Part shown: piece after piece, positions 1,669-39,069 of the stretch
Layout of the letters: each line of letters begins with the position of its first letter
How positions within the stretch are numbered: position 1 is the first letter of the stretch
Source: a virus
Lineage: Duplodnaviria > Heunggongvirae > Uroviricota > Caudoviricetes
IMG/VR virus record: IMGVR_UViG_2563366824_000005
Span: 1 to 43,437 of that record
DNA length: 43,437 bases
Strand: one strand, 5' to 3'
The notes under the pieces: generated by a model
Told to the model about the DNA's origin: nothing
Seen by the model: the letters and a program-made list of their open reading frames with translations, nothing else
Database searches by the model: none
Position numbers and translations under genes: made by a program

Positions 1669-4040
1669 TAGATTGACTCCCCCACCTGAGCATCAGTCAA
1701 TGCCTTGTGCCATATTCTGAAATTCCTGACATGACCAAATAAATGACGTAACCCGGCTGTAGTCTGGCCTCCAATACGGATAATTGCGGTGTTCTGAATA
1801 CAGGACCATGTGGTTTTTGTTTCGCTGGATATATGCCCGTTACTTACTGAGCACGTAGACTGCTCTGACTTTACACGCATCCCCATAACCATTTTTTCAA
1901 GCGATGCGTTTTCGTTTACCCGTCTGTTAGCTCCTCCAATATCGCAATAAGGAAATCCGTCGTAATCTGTTGAACGACCGAAGCCAAGAATAATAGCCGC
2001 TCCGGTTTGATGACCGCCGGTATCAAAAACACGTGGCGCTGCATTTGGCGTTTTATACCAGTTCTTATGTACCTCACAAAGAACCGTAAAAGGAAGATTA
2101 TAAAGATTATTCTTAATTGGAACTGTAACTATATCGCTTGCGCGGGTCGCCGCCGTCGCTCCTGATATAATAAAAGATGATACACAAGGCCCATCTTCTA
2201 CTTGTGGGGTGGCCAGATAAATATAGTCACCAGATACGGTTGCCCCGCTCTGCTTAGGAGAATACTGTATCTGAGAGCCTATTTTAAACTCCCCATCAAT
2301 TGCCTGAATTGTTGCCTCTGCAAAAATCCATCCGGTAGCTTCGTCCTTTCTGACTCTCGCTGTAATTCTTGAGGCAGCACCGCCTGTCATATTAATTTCA
2401 AGCGTTTGTGTATCAATATACGCATCACCAAGAAAAGTTGTTGCGCTACCGTCATATTTATCAAACCGGATACGCAACCTTACCTGCAGTTCTGTTTTAA
2501 AACGACATGAGGTTGTCACGTGTTTATTATCGCCTGAGACATCAACTGACTTTGTTGCAGCAATTGATGCCATATTAATGGCTGAGGTTTGCCCAATCAG
2601 AGAATCGTTGCAGACAAACTTTCCATAGGTAAAACCAAAATTATCCGTCCCTGTTTCGGGCACATCCATATTTGACGATCGCCCCCAACTGGCAGGGCTT
2701 TCCGAATTGAGCATGTAGTTTGTTCTTTGCCCCTCAATAAGCAGGCCATCACGTTCAAATCGTGGCTCGTCAATGGCAGCCTCTGTCAGCACACCAGATT
2801 TGTTAATATAGGTTGCTTTCGATGCACGTTTAAACTTAACAATCTTGTCGCCAGGCATCGTTATTTCATCGTCACCAATAACAATTTTTTTATATGACGG
2901 CGAAAAGCCCGTAATCATATCCAGTGAATCGTTAAACGGTATCCACACATCAGGCAGTGGCTGTAAGACATATTTATACGGCTCTGCTGCCTGACTTGCA
3001 TACTCTCTGGCTGCGTCTTCACTTGCTTTAGCTGCTGTCTGGCTTGCTGCCGATGCTTTCGCCGAGTTCGCCGCTGCAGTCTCGCTTGTCTTTGCATTGG
3101 TTTCACTGGTTTTTGCCGCTTTTTGACTGTTGGCTGATGCAGTGGCAGAAGCAGCCGCCGCGCTTGCAGAACCAGCTGCCGCGCTCTCGCTTTGGGCTGC
3201 TGCAACCTGGCTGTTTTTCGCCGCAGTTTCGCTGGCTTTGGCATTCGTTTCGCTGGTCTTCGCTGCCGTCTGGCTGGACTTTGCGTTAGTTTCACTCGTC
3301 TTCGCTGCTTTCTGGCTGTTAGCCGCAGCAGTTGCTGCTCCAGCTGCTGAAGTCGCAGAACCGGCTGCTGCGCTCTCGCTCTCAGCTGCTGCAGTCTGGC
3401 TGTTTTTCGCCGCAGTTTCACTGGCTTTGGCATTCGTTTCGCTGGCCTTCGCTGCCGTCTGGCTGGACTTTGCGTTGGTTTCGCTCGTCTTTGCGGCTGT
3501 CTCGCTATTTTTCGCGTTGGTTTCTGATTTTTTAGCTGCTGTCGCGGAATTTGCCGATGCAGTCTGCGAGGCCGCTGCCGCCTGTGCGCTGTTAGCTGCA
3601 TTCGTTTCTGAGTTTTTCGCCGCGTTCTTCGATGATGCCGCTGCAGTTTCGGATTTCTTTGCCGCCGCTGCGCTCTGAGAGGCGGCTTCAGAGTTGCGTG
3701 CCGCTTCTTCCACCATTACCTCAAAACGACGCAATGCCTCCGGCATGACATCCTCTTCCGTCATGGCACCGAGAAAATCATTCAGCGTGCCTGGTCTGGA
3801 ACCTTCATAGACGGTAATGGTCCCGGCATGTGAAGGCGGAAAACCTTCAACCAGCAGGGTGACGCTGTACTGGCCATACTCAACATCCATGCTGTAACGC
3901 CCGGCTTCATCCGGATTTTCAGAGGCCACCGTATTCACCAGTACCGTGGTGCTGTTACGCTTTGCTTTGAGCTGAATAGTGCAGTTCTGTATTGGTTTTC
4001 CTGCACCGTCTTTCAGCACGCCTGAAATCTGTACTGCCAT
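1668..4040 (-). CDS. stf: side tail fibre protein (Stf-like) with Ser/Ala/Thr-rich repeat region and lectin-like C-terminal domain
   Basis: N-terminus MAVQISGVLKDGAGKPIQNCTIQLKA... matches lambda/K-12 Stf N-terminal domain; start taken at third Met of track ORF; C-terminus ends ...FGHVRNFRIWHKALTDAQV (LamG/concanavalin-like pattern). Confidence 0.8.
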   Translation of the reverse strand: MAVQISGVLKDGAGKPIQNCTIQLKAKRNSTTVLVNTVASENPDEAGRYSMDVEYGQYSVTLLVEGFPPSHAGTITVYEGSRPGTLNDFLGAMTEEDVMPEALRRFEVMVEEAARNSEAASQSAAAAKKSETAAASSKNAAKNSETNAANSAQAAAASQTASANSATAAKKSETNAKNSETAAKTSETNAKSSQTAAKASETNAKASETAAKNSQTAAAESESAAAGSATSAAGAATAAANSQKAAKTSETNAKSSQTAAKTSETNAKASETAAKNSQVAAAQSESAAAGSASAAAASATASANSQKAAKTSETNAKTSETAAANSAKASAASQTAAKASEDAAREYASQAAEPYKYVLQPLPDVWIPFNDSLDMITGFSPSYKKIVIGDDEITMPGDKIVKFKRASKATYINKSGVLTEAAIDEPRFERDGLLIEGQRTNYMLNSESPASWGRSSNMDVPETGTDNFGFTYGKFVCNDSLIGQTSAINMASIAATKSVDVSGDNKHVTTSCRFKTELQVRLRIRFDKYDGSATTFLGDAYIDTQTLEINMTGGAASRITARVRKDEATGWIFAEATIQAIDGEFKIGSQIQYSPKQSGATVSGDYIYLATPQVEDGPCVSSFIISGATAATRASDIVTVPIKNNLYNLPFTVLCEVHKNWYKTPNAAPRVFDTGGHQTGAAIILGFGRSTDYDGFPYCDIGGANRRVNENASLEKMVMGMRVKSEQSTCSVSNGHISSETKTTWSCIQNTAIIRIGGQTTAGLRHLFGHVRNFRIWHKALTDAQVGESI
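3000..3700. repeat. tandem repeats of about 189 bp inside stf, encoding AAKTSETNAK-type repeats
   Basis: motif ctgtttttcgccgcagtttc recurs at 3211 and 3400 (189 bp apart) with flanking near-identical sequence; more diverged copies on either side. Confidence 0.7.
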
Positions 4041-12499: not shown

Positions 12500-14131
<1,632 letters not shown>

Positions 14132-25465: not shown

Positions 25466-25930
25466 TTATCTGAGGCATTGCTCTCGAATGTATAGCTGTG
25501 CCCCTTCAAGTTGTTTTTGCATTATTATCAGTCGCGCTCTGAGGGTGAAATAATCCCGTTCAGCGGTGTCTGCCAGTCGGGGGGAGGCTGCATTATCCAC
25601 GCCGGAGGCGGTGGTGGCTTCACGCACTGACTGACAGACTGCTTTGATGTGCAACCGACGACGACCAGCGGCAACATCATCACGCAGAGCATCATTTTCA
25701 GCTTTCGCATCAGCTAACTCCTTCGTGTATTTTGCATCGAGCGCAGCAACATCACGCTGACGCATCTGCATGTCAGTAATTGCCGCGTTCGCCAGCTTCA
25801 GTTCTCTGACATTTTTGTCGCGCTGGGCTTTGTAGGTAATGGCGTTATCACGGTAATGATTCAGCCCCAGACTAAGCGCACCACAGGCCACCAGCAGGGC
25901 AATGATGACCACGCACAGTACGCGGTTCAT
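25466..25930 (-). CDS. Rz: i-spanin Rz
   Basis: 154 aa with N-terminal TM segment and coiled-coil; lambda Rz-like. Confidence 0.8.
25528..25710 (-). CDS. Rz1: o-spanin Rz1 lipoprotein, embedded in Rz in +1 frame
   Basis: 60 aa with lipobox LVVVGC and PPPPP tract; near-identical to lambda Rz1 as recalled. Confidence 0.75.
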
Positions 25931-25931
25931 T

Positions 25932-26069
25932 TCACCACCAGCGTATCTGACCGATGAAATAACCAGAGGCCATAATCACAAACACCAGCCAGATAAGAAT
26001 GAACTTCCAGGTGGATAATTTTTCAGCCATCACTCGAATCTCCCGAATCAGTTTGCTAAAATCAAACAC
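25932..26069 (-). CDS. candidate small membrane protein (45 aa, GTG start) immediately upstream of Rz
   Basis: AAGGAG SD 5 nt before GTG at 26069; in-frame ATG at 26030 gives 32 aa; C-terminal hydrophobic helix [20 protein letters not shown]; stop overlaps Rz start (TGAAATG); below track length cut-off. Confidence 0.3.
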
Positions 26070-26105
26070 ACTTTCTCCTTTGACTTTTCCGGAGTCAGGA
26101 AACAC

Positions 26106-26139
26106 AAAACCCCGCTTGGTGCCAACAAACGGGGTTTTT
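26106..26139 (-). terminator. hairpin with U-run between endolysin and Rz (possible terminator or attenuator)
   Basis: minus strand CCCCG..TTGG/CCAA..CGGGG stem followed by TTTTGTGTTT. Confidence 0.35.
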
Positions 26140-26228
26140 ACTTTTATTCACTTACGTTTCGCCACTTCGCAGGATTTCATGTTATCCGCCCGCGTGGCCA
26201 TGCCTTATTTTTCAGCAAAATATTCTGC

Positions 26229-26762
26229 TTATCTGTCGATACCCCAGCACGCCAGCGCGCTCTCCTGGTCACGACGGGATACCTGACCGTAGCAGTTGTT
26301 TGAACGAATACGGCAGTCTCTGCCACCGTCCTTAATCCACCAGCGAATCGCCTCACACGCTCCCCTGCGATCACCTGCATTAATTCGTTTATAAAACGTC
26401 GACGGGAAACACTTACCGGGACCAATGTTGTACGGACAGAATGACGCGATCCCCGCTTTCTGGGGTTCGCTCAATGGCACTTTGATGTTTTTCTCCACCC
26501 ATGCCAGCGCCTTATCACGCTCAATGGCGTTGACCTGGTCGCATTTTTCCTTCGACAGTTTCATACCGGGAAAAACGGGTTTTCCATCCACCATCGTGGC
26601 CCCCCGACAGATGGTCCAGTTGCCGGAACCATCGCGGTATGCCGTAGTGTGGTTACCCTCTTTTTCATCCAGAAACTGGTCAAGTATCTGAGGAGCTGAT
26701 GCGCCTGCTCCAATCAGCGCCAGAACTGCAGCTGACAGGCCGTATTTGATTTTTGCGTTCAT
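26229..26762 (-). CDS. SAR endolysin (GH24 T4-type lysozyme with N-terminal signal-anchor-release domain)
   Basis: 177 aa; Gly/Ala-rich weakly hydrophobic N-terminus; catalytic spacing E-x8-D-x5-T in ...EKEGNHTTAYRDGSGNWTI... Confidence 0.85.
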   Translation of the reverse strand: MNAKIKYGLSAAVLALIGAGASAPQILDQFLDEKEGNHTTAYRDGSGNWTICRGATMVDGKPVFPGMKLSKEKCDQVNAIERDKALAWVEKNIKVPLSEPQKAGIASFCPYNIGPGKCFPSTFYKRINAGDRRGACEAIRWWIKDGGRDCRIRSNNCYGQVSRRDQESALACWGIDR

Positions 26763-26867
26763 GGATATTTATCAGGATTTATCGGTTTCTGAACCCTGGA
26801 TATGTTTATCTGTCCCGGCCTGTTGAATCAGGCGGGGAAAAGGTAAAGACAATCAAGAGGATTATTT

Positions 26868-27140
26868 ATGGACAATAGCACCATTTCTCTACAGGAGTTG
26901 CTCGACTGCATTTCCAGGCTTCGGGATGATGTAAATGCCCTCACTGTTGCATTTTCACATCTGGCCTTATCAATTCCCAGGGAGCAAATGCTGCCAACGC
27001 TGGCATCCATTCATTTTGAATCACGCAACCCCAAATGGTCCCAGGAACAACAAAATTCTTTCAAGTGGCTGGCGGCATTGCTGGAAGAAAATTATGCTGG
27101 CAAAACTACCATTTCGGCGGAGTCTTCAGGGAACCAGTAA
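26868..27140 (+). CDS. hypothetical protein on the strand opposite the lysis genes, convergent with the ydfR-like gene
   Basis: 90 aa ORF; AAGAGGA SD about 7 nt upstream of ATG; 3' end overlaps ydfR-like gene by 35 bp; no recognised family. Confidence 0.4.
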   Translation: MDNSTISLQELLDCISRLRDDVNALTVAFSHLALSIPREQMLPTLASIHFESRNPKWSQEQQNSFKWLAALLEENYAGKTTISAESSGNQ

Positions 27141-27450
27141 TCCTTCCCGGTAGCTTTCCTTTGTAGGTTATCCATACATTCTGCGCCTCTAAAATTACGG
27201 GGCGCTTTTCCGGCGACTGCTCATCCCCTTCACATAACCCGGCAGCGACATCCAGGAAGACCTGTCTGATGCTCCTTCTGGCCGCTGCCTCATAAAACTC
27301 CAGCGCAGCACCTTCAACACGGTCCAGCGAGATGTCCAGGTCAAAAATTTCACCGTCAAAGCGTTCTTTGTCCTGTAATGCTAAAGTTACCGTAACTTTA
27401 TTCTCAAAATTGCGGATCCCTTTCACAATCAGTTCATAGTTTTGAGTCAT
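27106..27450 (-). CDS. YdfR-like protein (DUF1327) between holin and endolysin
   Basis: 114 aa MTQNYELIVKGIRNFENKVTV...; same position as ydfR in K-12 Qin; GGGGAGAG SD. Confidence 0.6.
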   Translation of the reverse strand: MTQNYELIVKGIRNFENKVTVTLALQDKERFDGEIFDLDISLDRVEGAALEFYEAAARRSIRQVFLDVAAGLCEGDEQSPEKRPVILEAQNVWITYKGKLPGRITGSLKTPPKW

Positions 27451-27454
27451 TGAA

Positions 27455-27670
27455 TTACTCTCCCCGTGCCGCCTTACGACGGTCCTCTCTGATTTTGAAA
27501 TACAGGTTAGTCAGATATGTCAGCAGCCCAAACAGCAGACTCCCCAGCACGCCTATTGCCGCCCACTGAGACGGGGAAACCCTGTCCAGCAACTGCAGGA
27601 ACCAGTAGCCCGTTCCCACCGCTGACGTGGTGTATGACACACCTGTTGTGATTTTTTCCATCTGGTCCAT
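27455..27670 (-). CDS. class II pinholin (phage 21 S-type) with dual-start motif
   Basis: 71 aa [10 protein letters not shown]...[40 protein letters not shown], close to P21 S21 as recalled; Met1 and Met4 give the antiholin/holin pair; track ORF extended upstream. Confidence 0.8.
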
Positions 27671-27977
27671 ACCCCGTCTCCCGTTATCCGGAAGCTGAAA
27701 ACAATAAAAAAGCCACCAGTTAACTACTGATGGCTCTGATAACTCATGCAAGCGTCTCAGACGACCCACTGACACTACCGGTGAGTTTAACGATACCTTC
27801 CATTTGACTGGCTCACTTTTTATGATGATGCCGGTGCATTTATCTCCAGCGCCAGACTTTCTATCTCAACGCCATACGTTACATTTTTGGTAATATCCAT
27901 CAGCGTCAGTGCATTTAGTCCCACTGCCAGACTGTCTTTTATGGCCTGGAATGCCGGGCCAGTACGATGACGTAGTA

Positions 27978-28166
27978 TCACTCCGGCTCAGTTGCACCAC
28001 TGACCACCACATCACCTTCTGCTGCAATCGCCTGCATCAGGGTATAAGGGGTTATGGCCACCGGACTACCAAACGGCTGCCCGCCCTCTTTCAGTTTATG
28101 TGTCAGCTTTTCCGCAAGATCTGACGGCGGCGCCGCCCTGACAACATCATAGTGTTTAAATGCCAT
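27978..28166 (-). CDS. hypothetical small protein (62 aa)
   Basis: start at MAFKHYDV... with GGAAAG SD; divergent from ORF 28427-28762 across an AT-rich spacer; no recognised family. Confidence 0.4.
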   Translation of the reverse strand: MAFKHYDVVRAAPPSDLAEKLTHKLKEGGQPFGSPVAITPYTLMQAIAAEGDVVVSGATEPE

Positions 28167-28426
28167 GGTTCTTTCCACTATCTGAAAAATAATTCTTTAA
28201 AATACCGGATATGTAATACAGAAAAAACACAAAACCATACCTTAAATAAAAACCTGATTATCAAGCAGATATGCATGGATAAACTACAAGACGAGATATA
28301 AACCACCCTGCATTTAAATAAACAATAAACAACATCAGAAAAATAATTCTGCGCTATGGTTTACATTCAAAAATATCATTTATACTTTTCAGAACATCAC
28401 CAGCAAGGCATAAACAAGGAAGCTAA

Positions 28427-28762: not shown

Positions 28763-28796
28763 GGAGTTTACTCACATCTGACAAAATCAATATAAA

Positions 28797-28818
28797 CAGC
28801 CCCTCCGGAGAGGGGCTG
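28797..28818. terminator. strong 9-bp GC hairpin (CAGCCCCTC-CGGA-GAGGGGCTG)
   Basis: perfect inverted repeat; U-rich tract on the minus-strand side only. Confidence 0.45.
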
Positions 28819-29209
28819 GAGAGTGGCGCTATGTGCCATTGCATGGTGCCGGGTGCCTCCCGGTGAATTCAGTACCAGCACCTGAATCCGCGATTATCCC
28901 ATATACCTACTCGCTGATTGCCCCTCCGCACAGGGGGATTCACCATGCCAGTTTCTTTTAACAAACTCCCCGCAAACCAGACAACAGTCAACCGCCTGAA
29001 TTGTGAAGTATTTAAAAATTTCTCCCGCTAACTGATACCCGGCTAACAGTCTGGCGTTTTCTTTTTCAGCAACGGGAAAGCAACAACCACCACACCCGCC
29101 ACCAGCACACCGTCAGCCAGCACTGACATTATCCGGCTGCTGCAATGCCATTCACAAAAACAGTAAGCAATCACTTTTTACCGTAACAGGTGATAATCCA
29201 GATATGTAT

Positions 29210-29673: not shown

Positions 29674-29750
29674 TGGCGCGCTGTACTGGATTCGAACCAG
29701 TGACCGATTGCTTAGAAGGCAATTGCTCTGTCCGGCTGAGCTAACAACGC
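29674..29750 (-). tRNA. tRNA-Arg (anticodon UCU)
   Basis: 77-nt cloverleaf GCGTTGTTAGCTCAGCCGGACAGAGCAATTGCCTTCTAAGCAATCGGTCACTGGTTCGAATCCAGTACAGCGCGCCA with encoded CCA. Confidence 0.85.
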
Positions 29751-29784
29751 TGAATACCGATAATGGACCGCCATCGGGGACCCG

Positions 29785-29795
29785 CCCCCCCCCCC
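29785..29795. repeat. homopolymeric C11 (G11 on minus strand) tract between the two tRNA genes
   Basis: cccgccccccccccccgcacc at 29781-29800. Confidence 0.9.
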
Positions 29796-29856
29796 GCACC
29801 AACACCCCTGTTATCGTGTCGTCTGCTCTTCCTGATAAGCTAATGGCGGTTTGTGA

Positions 29857-29932
29857 TGGTGGCCCTTGCTGGATTTGAACCAGCGACCTGGCGATTATGA
29901 GTCGCTCGCTCTCACCACTGAGCTAAAGGACC
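29857..29932 (-). tRNA. tRNA-Ile2 (anticodon CAU, ileX/ileZ-like; would be called tRNA-Met by anticodon alone)
   Basis: 76-nt cloverleaf GGTCCTTTAGCTCAGTGGTGAGAGCGAGCGACTCATAATCGCCAGGTCGCTGGTTCAAATCCAGCAAGGGCCACCA, resembles E. coli ileX. Confidence 0.8.
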
Positions 29933-33068: not shown

Positions 33069-33224
33069 TTACTCCTCAGGTTCGTAAACTGTGAAGACAG
33101 CGACCTCCGTCTGGCCGGTTCGGATTCGTACCTCGCAGAGGTCTTTCCTCGTTACCAGTGCCGTCACTATGACGGTTAAACAGATGACGATCAGGGCGAT
33201 TAACATCGCCTTTTGCTGCTTCAT
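33069..33224 (-). CDS. hokD: Hok-family type I toxin (HokD/RelF-like)
   Basis: 51 aa MKQQKAMLIALIVICLTVIVTALVTRKDLCEVRIRTGQTEVAVFTAYEPEE; AAGGAG SD; below track length cut-off. Confidence 0.85.
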   Translation of the reverse strand: MKQQKAMLIALIVICLTVIVTALVTRKDLCEVRIRTGQTEVAVFTVYEPEE

Positions 33225-33481
33225 AGCCTGCTTCTCCTTGACCTTTCGGTCCGTAAGAGGCTAATCTCTATGTGTCGCATAGATATGGCCTCAGATTAAT
33301 GTTAAACGTCTTGCAGGACGCGTAATGTTACCTGGGGCTTTTCTCTATCTGCCGTTGGTGTTCATGCCCGAGGCAGATAGCCTCAAGCACCCGCAGTCAT
33401 TCTACTTAACTAAGATTTCCCCGCAAACCGTTTTTGTCCAGCACAATAAATATCCAACTAAACCAATGGAGTTCGCTGTAT

Positions 33482-39011: not shown

Positions 39012-39069
39012 TTTCTGGTGACGTTTGGCGGTATCAGTTTTACTCCGTGACTGCTCTGCCGCCCTTTTT
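39012..39069 (+). ncRNA. dicF: DicF small regulatory RNA with its terminator
   Basis: TTTCTGGTGACGTTTGGCGGTATCAGTTTTACTCCGTGACTGCTCTGCCGCCC followed by TTTTT matches K-12 DicF as recalled. Confidence 0.8.

Follow-up and report, generated by a model that had tools for sequence, protein, structure and literature searches.

The lysis cassette of the Qin prophage of Escherichia coli K-12, with the gene order essQ-ydfR-rrrQ-rzpQ, is the nearest described counterpart of the locus considered here, which lies in a 43,437-nucleotide stretch of DNA from a virus of the Caudoviricetes (IMG/VR virus record IMGVR_UViG_2563366824_000005, positions 1 to 43,437; hereafter the window). In the window, a 90-codon open reading frame (ORF) on the plus strand (26868-27140), which we call X, is found between the ydfR gene and the endolysin gene of a lysis cassette that is itself encoded on the minus strand. 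The two loci are alike in the holin family, in the presence of a DUF1327 gene between holin and lysozyme, and in gene order and strand. They differ in that Qin has no opposite-strand ORF, its ydfR gene overlapping rrrQ, and in that the K-12 YdfR lacks in its C-terminal half the peptide ITGSLKTPP. A first-pass annotation of the window had reported both a YdfR-like gene of the DUF1327 family (27106-27450) between holin and endolysin and the opposite-strand ORF with its own Shine-Dalgarno (SD) sequence and a 35-bp overlap with ydfR. The former is confirmed by the Pfam family PF07041, and both the coordinates and the AAGAGG motif of the latter hold. Its view of ydfR as an extra gene in the cassette stands as to the presence of the gene, which is however not new, this being the standard layout of K-12 Qin. 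The position of ydfR was thus already known. X had been annotated as a hypothetical protein and grouped as a PHROG without being studied, while the wider family of X, the polymorphism of the slot that it occupies and its conserved convergent overlap with an ITGSL-tailed partner appear to be new.

Four other described systems invite comparison. The morons of lambdoid late regions, such as bor of lambda, are in the concept of Hendrix and Juhala expected to be expressed from the prophage. X resembles them in being extra to a late operon, present or absent among relatives, lower in GC and opposite in orientation; it differs in that a promoter and terminator of its own were not found, that its junction falls within a late gene whose last codons are replaced, that the phage copies always overlap an ITGSL-tailed partner, and that its product is soluble and helical rather than an envelope protein. 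In the operons of pore-forming colicins, a convergent immunity gene lies between the colicin and lysis genes, and the immunity proteins are integral membrane proteins. Here too a small opposite-strand gene lies tail to tail with a larger variable-ended gene next to lysis genes and varies together with the end of the latter; however, X has no membrane segment, its partner has no variable domain past the junction and no toxicity is known for YdfR. The hot spots of P2 and P4 hold defence-gene cargo between conserved phage genes. They share with our locus the many unrelated alleles in one slot with conserved flanks, whereas X and the other slot ORFs lack a PADLOC match and the slot includes the end of a late-strand gene. 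Finally, TxpA/RatA of the Bacillus subtilis prophages is a type I toxin-antitoxin system with convergent transcripts overlapping at their 3' ends. The likeness lies in the prophage-borne convergent units with overlapping 3' ends, but X and its partner are both conserved proteins and neither is like a small membrane toxin.

X as an optional gene of an exchangeable slot between ydfR and endolysin

Of 5426 complete E. coli genomes, 1125 carry X and 4370 at least part of the S21-type lysis cassette; most of the latter have ydfR between holin and endolysin. Three layouts occur among the 369 phage records with the cassette: the holin gene S and the endolysin gene R may be adjacent, as in the 933W-type Stx2a phages and Min27; ydfR may separate them, as in the Stx1a phages and YYZ-2008; or they may be separated by both ydfR and X (nine records). 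The slot is empty in K-12 Qin, in many phages and in strain BKQ37E, where only 64 bp lie between ydfR and R; this interval is 343 bp in the window. Reading the window against BKQ37E by eye (a MAFFT alignment misplaced the gap), we could place the approximate junctions of an X cassette (Table 1) that is absent from otherwise collinear prophages. Genome matches that come in two pieces at 60-62% coverage are consistent with its absence between collinear flanks. YdfR ends in ...ITGSLKTPPKW in the window and in ...ITGSLKTPPESQP in BKQ37E; the right junction of the cassette falls within the last ydfR codons, and the cassette therefore supplies, besides X, the final two codons of YdfR (KW) and its stop. 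The GC content of the X cassette is 0.45, as against 0.53 for R and 0.54 for the holin gene, that of ydfR (0.48) being closer to the cassette.

Elsewhere the same slot is filled by unrelated opposite-strand ORFs belonging to PHROG 2572 (86 aa) and PHROG 1853 (104 aa). Taken together, the optional presence of X among collinear cassettes, its lower GC and its relatives outside lysis cassettes bear out the suggestion of the first-pass annotation that it could be cargo. Homology of X to the other convergent ORFs of the slot and of tail operons was considered and dropped, BLASTP returning nothing and hhalign only non-significant matches (E 0.07-0.3).

Over 26700-27500 the window is 100% identical to the record of E. 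coli ATCC 11775, in which exactly the same ORF is annotated as the hypothetical protein WP_001351274.1 by the Prokaryotic Genome Annotation Pipeline (PGAP); further out the two are non-collinear, because their tRNA positions differ. X is also carried by BL21(DE3), as part of an essD-ydfR-X-rrrQ-Rz block in the Rac remnant. This block (NC_012892.2 1400683-1406947; locus L108) is flanked by sieB/ydaF and trkG and shows no Q gene or late promoter region within the 6.3-kb stretch examined.

X is a conserved gene and is not lysis-specific

X is a real gene under purifying selection. It matches phrog_2411 over its full length, residues 1-90 aligning with profile positions 1-90 (E 5.5e-55). Among 82 fetched loci its DNA occurs in 25 distinct versions, each of 273 nt and with zero indels: 22 are stop-free, two are one codon shorter and one has an internal stop. 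The 59 variable sites are distributed over codon positions 1, 2 and 3 as 12, 15 and 32 (chi-square p = 0.003), and in-frame deletions are seen among the protein variants. In the family the ratio of nonsynonymous to synonymous polymorphism (pN/pS) is 0.16 for two chromosomal copies from Serratia, as compared with 0.23-0.44 in phages and islands. The first-pass annotation had made its case for X depend on conservation and a coding signature; both are present, as the PHROG 2411 membership, the third-position excess and the pN/pS values attest. In addition, the GAGG core of the SD sequence is present in all 20 distinct upstream variants. A plus-strand ORF of at least 90 residues arose in 37 of 5000 mononucleotide shuffles of 26763-27140, and the conservation is far stronger evidence for X than this shuffle test.

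Opposite X there is a Cys/Ser-rich antisense shadow ORF (window 26828-27010, minus strand; equivalents at loci L078 and L084), whose frame, -2, is open across the whole X region in 12 of the 25 E. coli variants. Frames +1 and -2 cannot be separated by the ratio of nonsynonymous to synonymous substitution rates (dN/dS) alone: their wobble positions coincide and the ratios are similar; therefore, stop-codon content and distant relatives were used to decide. Stops close the shadow frame in the window and all antisense frames of the distant relatives, save for one chance exception (frame -3 in locus L090); accordingly, we rejected the shadow ORF as a true gene. It is thus exceedingly improbable that X is itself a chance or decaying reading frame propagated by gene callers. 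Such a frame would fit with the stops or frameshifts in some variants, with the lack of an assigned function, Pfam family or detectable promoter, and with a shadow ORF that is open in nearly half of the E. coli variants, yet it is contradicted by all of the above conservation as well as by the closure of the shadow ORF in the window and in each distant relative.

By its sequence, X is a member of an uncharacterised Enterobacterales family, PHROG 2411, which is also met as 'Ybl58', the UniProt name on the exact-sequence cluster of X. The homology search that the first-pass annotation had proposed was made with a profile against 1.8 billion representatives and in a second database. It recovered, from Atlantibacter, Citrobacter, Yersinia, many Serratia species, Sodalis, Chania and others, relatives of 81-106 aa with 24-42% identity and a gap-free alignment of their first ~78 residues. 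The family core reads ELL..I..LR..VN.L..AFSYLAFS...E....TI.AL.FES.N, the corresponding segments in the window protein being AFSHLALS and FESRN. X has no family in Pfam, NCBIfam or PADLOC, its sole NCBIfam line (Mip) being sub-threshold at 12.6 bits against a cut-off of 50, and it has neither a PDB relative by sequence nor a fold match. The PADLOC defence models likewise gave no matches for two X relatives, two other slot ORFs and YdfR. We found no literature under the accessions and locus tags of X or the name 'ybl58'; a paper on a Gifsy defence protein that was found by keyword is unrelated to X. The predicted product of 10.1 kDa is acidic (isoelectric point 4.95) and soluble (grand average of hydropathy -0.36), without a transmembrane segment (maximum Kyte-Doolittle 19-residue mean 0.83). 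Its AlphaFold2 model, with a mean predicted local distance difference test score of 73, comprises four helices (residues 8-20, 22-35, 38-52 and 59-77), with residues 81-90 being disordered.

The family is not specific to lysis cassettes. Some relatives of X sit among tail genes, in the interval from I to J of Yersinia-type prophages or that from M to L of an IMG/VR contig. A Citrobacter prophage carries one upstream of its holin gene, and E. coli islands have X relatives that follow the gene of an AIDA-type autotransporter. In Serratia-like chromosomes X is a co-directional core gene in the order pyrC-dinI-X-bssS-solA; the chromosomal pair compared above lies at L090 6001-6279 and L106 4001-4273. 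Regulation by the SOS response through a LexA box (CTG-N10-CAG) was also considered: only one of 12 contexts shows a box-like site, upstream of the Serratia proteamaculans copy (L090), where it is not conserved and was taken as chance, and no LexA box is present upstream of X in the window or at the second chromosomal locus.

The late-strand partner, transcription and the role of X

In all four independent phage settings X lies on the strand opposite to the late genes and converges on a small late-strand gene, with which its 3' end overlaps by 7-47 bp. The C-terminal end of the partner carries an ITGSL-type peptide each time; it reads ...RITGSLKTPPKW in the window, where the partner is YdfR, ...KITGSLRAPIKL in Citrobacter, ...RITGSLFAPLSAHPSE in the Yersinia type and ...QIFGELKKPPSY in the IMG/VR contig. 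BLASTP relates the Citrobacter partner to that of Yersinia at 2e-10 and YdfR to each of them at 0.003-0.004. Across the window, Yersinia and Citrobacter loci the ITGSL codons show synonymous differences only (att act ggt tcc ctg / att acg gga tcg tta / att acc ggt tcg tta). Within the overlap, the frame of X is not conserved while that of the partner is; hence, it is the partner that constrains the overlap, with the disordered tail of X overprinted on it. The window and Yersinia agree in where the stop of X falls within the T-I codons; in Citrobacter an in-frame stop comes earlier. A resemblance of the partner end (..KTPPKW, ..KKPPSY) to that of SlyX (..PPPHY) was dropped for want of a Pfam SlyX match.

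The form of the partner goes with the identity of the ORF that converges on it. At 75 of 76 X-bearing loci YdfR is a 114-aa protein ending in ...PPKW, its end being exactly PGRITGSLKTPPKW at 57 of them. K-12 YdfR shares with the window protein the N-terminal ~67 residues and differs from it in the C-terminal half. There are also longer forms of YdfR, which continue for ~70 or ~150 residues beyond ITGSLK(T/M)PP, each with its own convergent ORF. Examples of these long forms at L085 1874-2425 (183 aa) and L086 2005-2811 (268 aa) have unannotated C-terminal domains; PGAP labels them 'YdfR, incomplete, missing C-terminus', yet their frames are open. Elsewhere the partner is a small coiled-coil protein, here termed Y. 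At all 10 Y-type tail-operon loci the hypervariable C-terminal end of Y and the convergent overlapping ORF (73-93 aa) differ together, while the flanks on both sides and the N-terminus of Y (MTQEQRIEALEQQVSEMKKQL) are conserved. The Y-type loci, which lie between I and J or between M and L of lambdoid tail operons, are L111-L126 (IMG/VR), L099 and L105, at ~2500-3000 in each; their conserved far flank reads MADLLWDKEIK in frame.

As for transcription, alignment of the upstream regions points to one weak promoter candidate for X, which escaped the consensus scan (Table 1). Its second hexamer is GACAAT in the window and TACAAT in other clades; the two hexamers are poorly spaced, and transcription from them would begin no earlier than the SD sequence. 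A hairpin that is terminator-like on both strands lies between R and the next ORF (26106-26138), and plus-strand transcripts reaching X should therefore start within ~26139-26867. In the tail-operon settings a late-strand terminator lies beyond the antisense of X; the window has no such terminator, as would be anticipated if late transcription has to pass on into R and Rz.

On balance, we lean towards the view that X is optional moron-type cargo in an exchangeable slot of the lysis cassette and not lysis machinery. We infer that X would be transcribed alone, and most likely in the prophage state, from a weak or non-canonical plus-strand promoter in the ~730 bp between the hairpin and its start codon. 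As no terminator lies past the X stop, this transcript would continue antisense into ydfR and the holin gene, and Q-dependent late transcription from the opposite side would swamp X expression. The protein itself would most likely work by binding another protein. Several points weigh against this reading. When scanned for consensus sites, neither the window nor the three other phage settings show a sigma-70 promoter upstream of X, and X ends inside ydfR with no plus-strand terminator detected in 27140-27628; hence, the promoter and terminator of its own that mark a classical moron were not detected. The pN/pS of 0.4 in the E. coli prophage copies amounts to only moderate constraint, and neither expression data nor literature for X was found. 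Further, the regularity with which X is paired with an ITGSL-tailed gene of the late strand suggests that it is not just random cargo.

This pairing raises the possibility, which we consider rather doubtful, that X forms a cognate two-gene system with its late-strand partner (YdfR, or Y elsewhere), in which X binds or counteracts the partner as an antidote, immunity protein or regulator. The convergent 3' overlap would then couple the two inversely, X being on in the lysogen and the partner in late transcription, and the exchanged unit would be the variable C-terminal end of the partner with the matching convergent ORF. The recurrence of convergence and overlap with an ITGSL-type partner in four of four settings argues for this, as do the similarity between the partners, the synonymous-only variation of the ITGSL codons with the X stop at the same place within them, and the near-invariable association of X with one 114-aa form of YdfR. 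So too do the different convergent ORFs of the longer YdfR forms and the co-variation at the tail-operon loci. According to a 2026 paper, two-hybrid and co-purification experiments show K-12 YdfR to bind RNase E through the catalytic half of the latter; YdfR also pulls down RNA and may bind it, and its overexpression has only a limited effect on the transcriptome (PMC13232886). The RNase E binding would provide a host target worth regulating; the limited effect, along with the lack of any known YdfR toxicity, speaks against a cognate system. Moreover, X relatives occur without a partner in Serratia-type chromosomes, Sodalis and the E. coli islands, ITGSL-tailed YdfR is also found without X, and the X-associated partner stops just past the junction, leaving no variable 'effector' domain to match. 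Exchange of one DNA block can by itself produce the co-variation. In its broadest form, X and the C-terminal end of its partner would be one allele of a polymorphic, convergent, 3'-overlapping cassette coding for cognate protein pairs (effector/inhibitor or toxin/immunity). Among enterobacterial temperate phages, such units would be swapped within conserved flanks of the late operons, both at the lysis genes and at the tail genes, and the direction of transcription would switch their expression between the prophage and late lytic states. We regard this generalization as a conceivable one, with the balance of probability well against it.

Two further alternatives, an RNA-only role and a dedicated role in lysis timing, are both unlikely given the conservation at the protein level and the distribution of the gene. 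According to the former, the plus-strand RNA rather than the protein would be functional, its antisense action damping leaky lysis genes in the lysogen or tuning lysis timing. X is indeed convergent with the late operon, with no terminator found between it and the holin gene, and in the tail operons the Y transcript must traverse all of the X antisense before its terminator, so that mutual antisense pairing is built into the layout. However, the protein is conserved across genera with its frame preserved and third-position changes in excess, the chromosomal copies between dinI and bssS are co-directional and have nothing to be antisense to, no Rfam family matches in 26000-28300, and the cassette is missing from many phages with the same holin and endolysin; these points make the RNA reading a poor prospect. 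Even less probable is that X is a dedicated lysis regulator, for instance an antiholin-like or endolysin-directed protein of the pinholin/SAR (signal-anchor-release) endolysin pathway. About one E. coli genome in five has X between the endolysin gene and the genes on the holin side, and the Citrobacter relative again adjoins a holin gene, which might suggest as much. Nevertheless, X runs opposite to the late transcript and is thus not co-expressed with S and R, and its family extends to tail operons and bacterial chromosomes. The lysis-timing regulator that the first-pass annotation had envisaged accordingly fares badly, the product being soluble and acidic without a membrane segment, and many functional phages, including some with the same holin and endolysin, doing without X.

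The gene of this unstudied 10-kDa protein is carried within a lysis cassette by roughly every fifth sequenced E. coli genome, BL21(DE3) among them. Its family is a core gene in Serratia and also travels in late operons of several phage lineages. If X is ordinary cargo, it is one more candidate for a lysogenic-conversion or exclusion factor. If its pairing with ITGSL-tailed proteins is functional, it would point to a polymorphic family of gene pairs, arranged convergently in the late operons of phages, and could give a handle on YdfR, recently reported as an RNase E binder (PMC13232886). If the exchange of such pairs as polymorphic cassettes is real, they would represent a class of accessory module in phages that had not been described before.

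Features of the lysis cassette

Table 1. Features of the lysis cassette in the window, with positions on the 43,437-nucleotide stretch
Feature	Position	Strand	Details
S21-type class II holin	27455-27670	-	71 aa from PGAP start; PF04971 'phage P21 holin S', E 3.7e-32
Holin ORF at full open length	27455-27775	-	ORF list
Terminator-like hairpin 5' of holin gene	27709-27737	-	tR'-like position; terminator scan
ydfR	27106-27450	-	114 aa; PF07041 DUF1327, E 6.9e-44; C-terminal end ...WITYKGKLPGRITGSLKTPPKW
ITGSLKTPP codons of ydfR	27115-27141	-	Partner tail/junction peptide; antisense to X codons 83-90 and X stop
Tail-to-tail overlap of X and ydfR	27106-27140	both	35 bp; ORF list
X (ORF90)	26868-27140	+	90 aa, ATG start; PGAP coding sequence, PHROG 2411
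SD sequence of X, AAGAGG	26855-26860	+	7 nt 5' of ATG; read from sequence
Weak promoter candidate TTGAAT-19 nt-GACAAT	26823-26853	+	Upstream alignment; not in consensus scan
X cassette	26822-27112		~290 bp, approximate junctions; absent from otherwise collinear prophages
Endolysin (phage lysozyme family)	26229-26762	-	177 aa; PF00959
GC-rich hairpin, R to next ORF	26106-26138	both	13 bp, with A-run and T-run; terminator-like on both strands
Small ORF, PHROG 6632	25932-26105	-	45-57 aa, annotated hypothetical; ORF list, PGAP, PHROG profile
Rz spanin	25466-25930	-	PF03245, E 1.4e-52
Rz1 lipoprotein gene, within Rz	25528-25710	-	60 aa; LVVVGC and Pro-rich end

The holin has a second methionine at codon 4 (MDQM...), giving the dual start of the P21 S family, and YdfR matches PF07041 with 148.4 bits against a gathering cut-off of 25. 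Read by eye, the N-terminus of the lysozyme, YGLSAAVLALIGAGASA, has a Gly/Ala-rich hydrophobic stretch that resembles a SAR segment, making it a putative SAR endolysin. In the record of ATCC 11775 the lysozyme gene (535 nt) bears the PGAP label 'frameshifted'; the window has an intact frame of 177 aa, as long as the proteins of K-12 and BL21. Between R and Rz the cassette has a second extra interval (25932-26228), occupied by the PHROG 6632 ORF and the hairpin at 26106-26138, whereas the lysozyme and Rz genes overlap directly in BKQ37E and K-12. Elsewhere in the window, Rfam matches at gathering score were obtained for isrC, STnc100, sok, DicF and two tRNAs (13567-13689, 28788-28977, 33222-33392, 39013-39064 and 29677-29932). 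The STnc100 match lies just upstream of the lysis cassette, and the sok match implies a hok/sok module.

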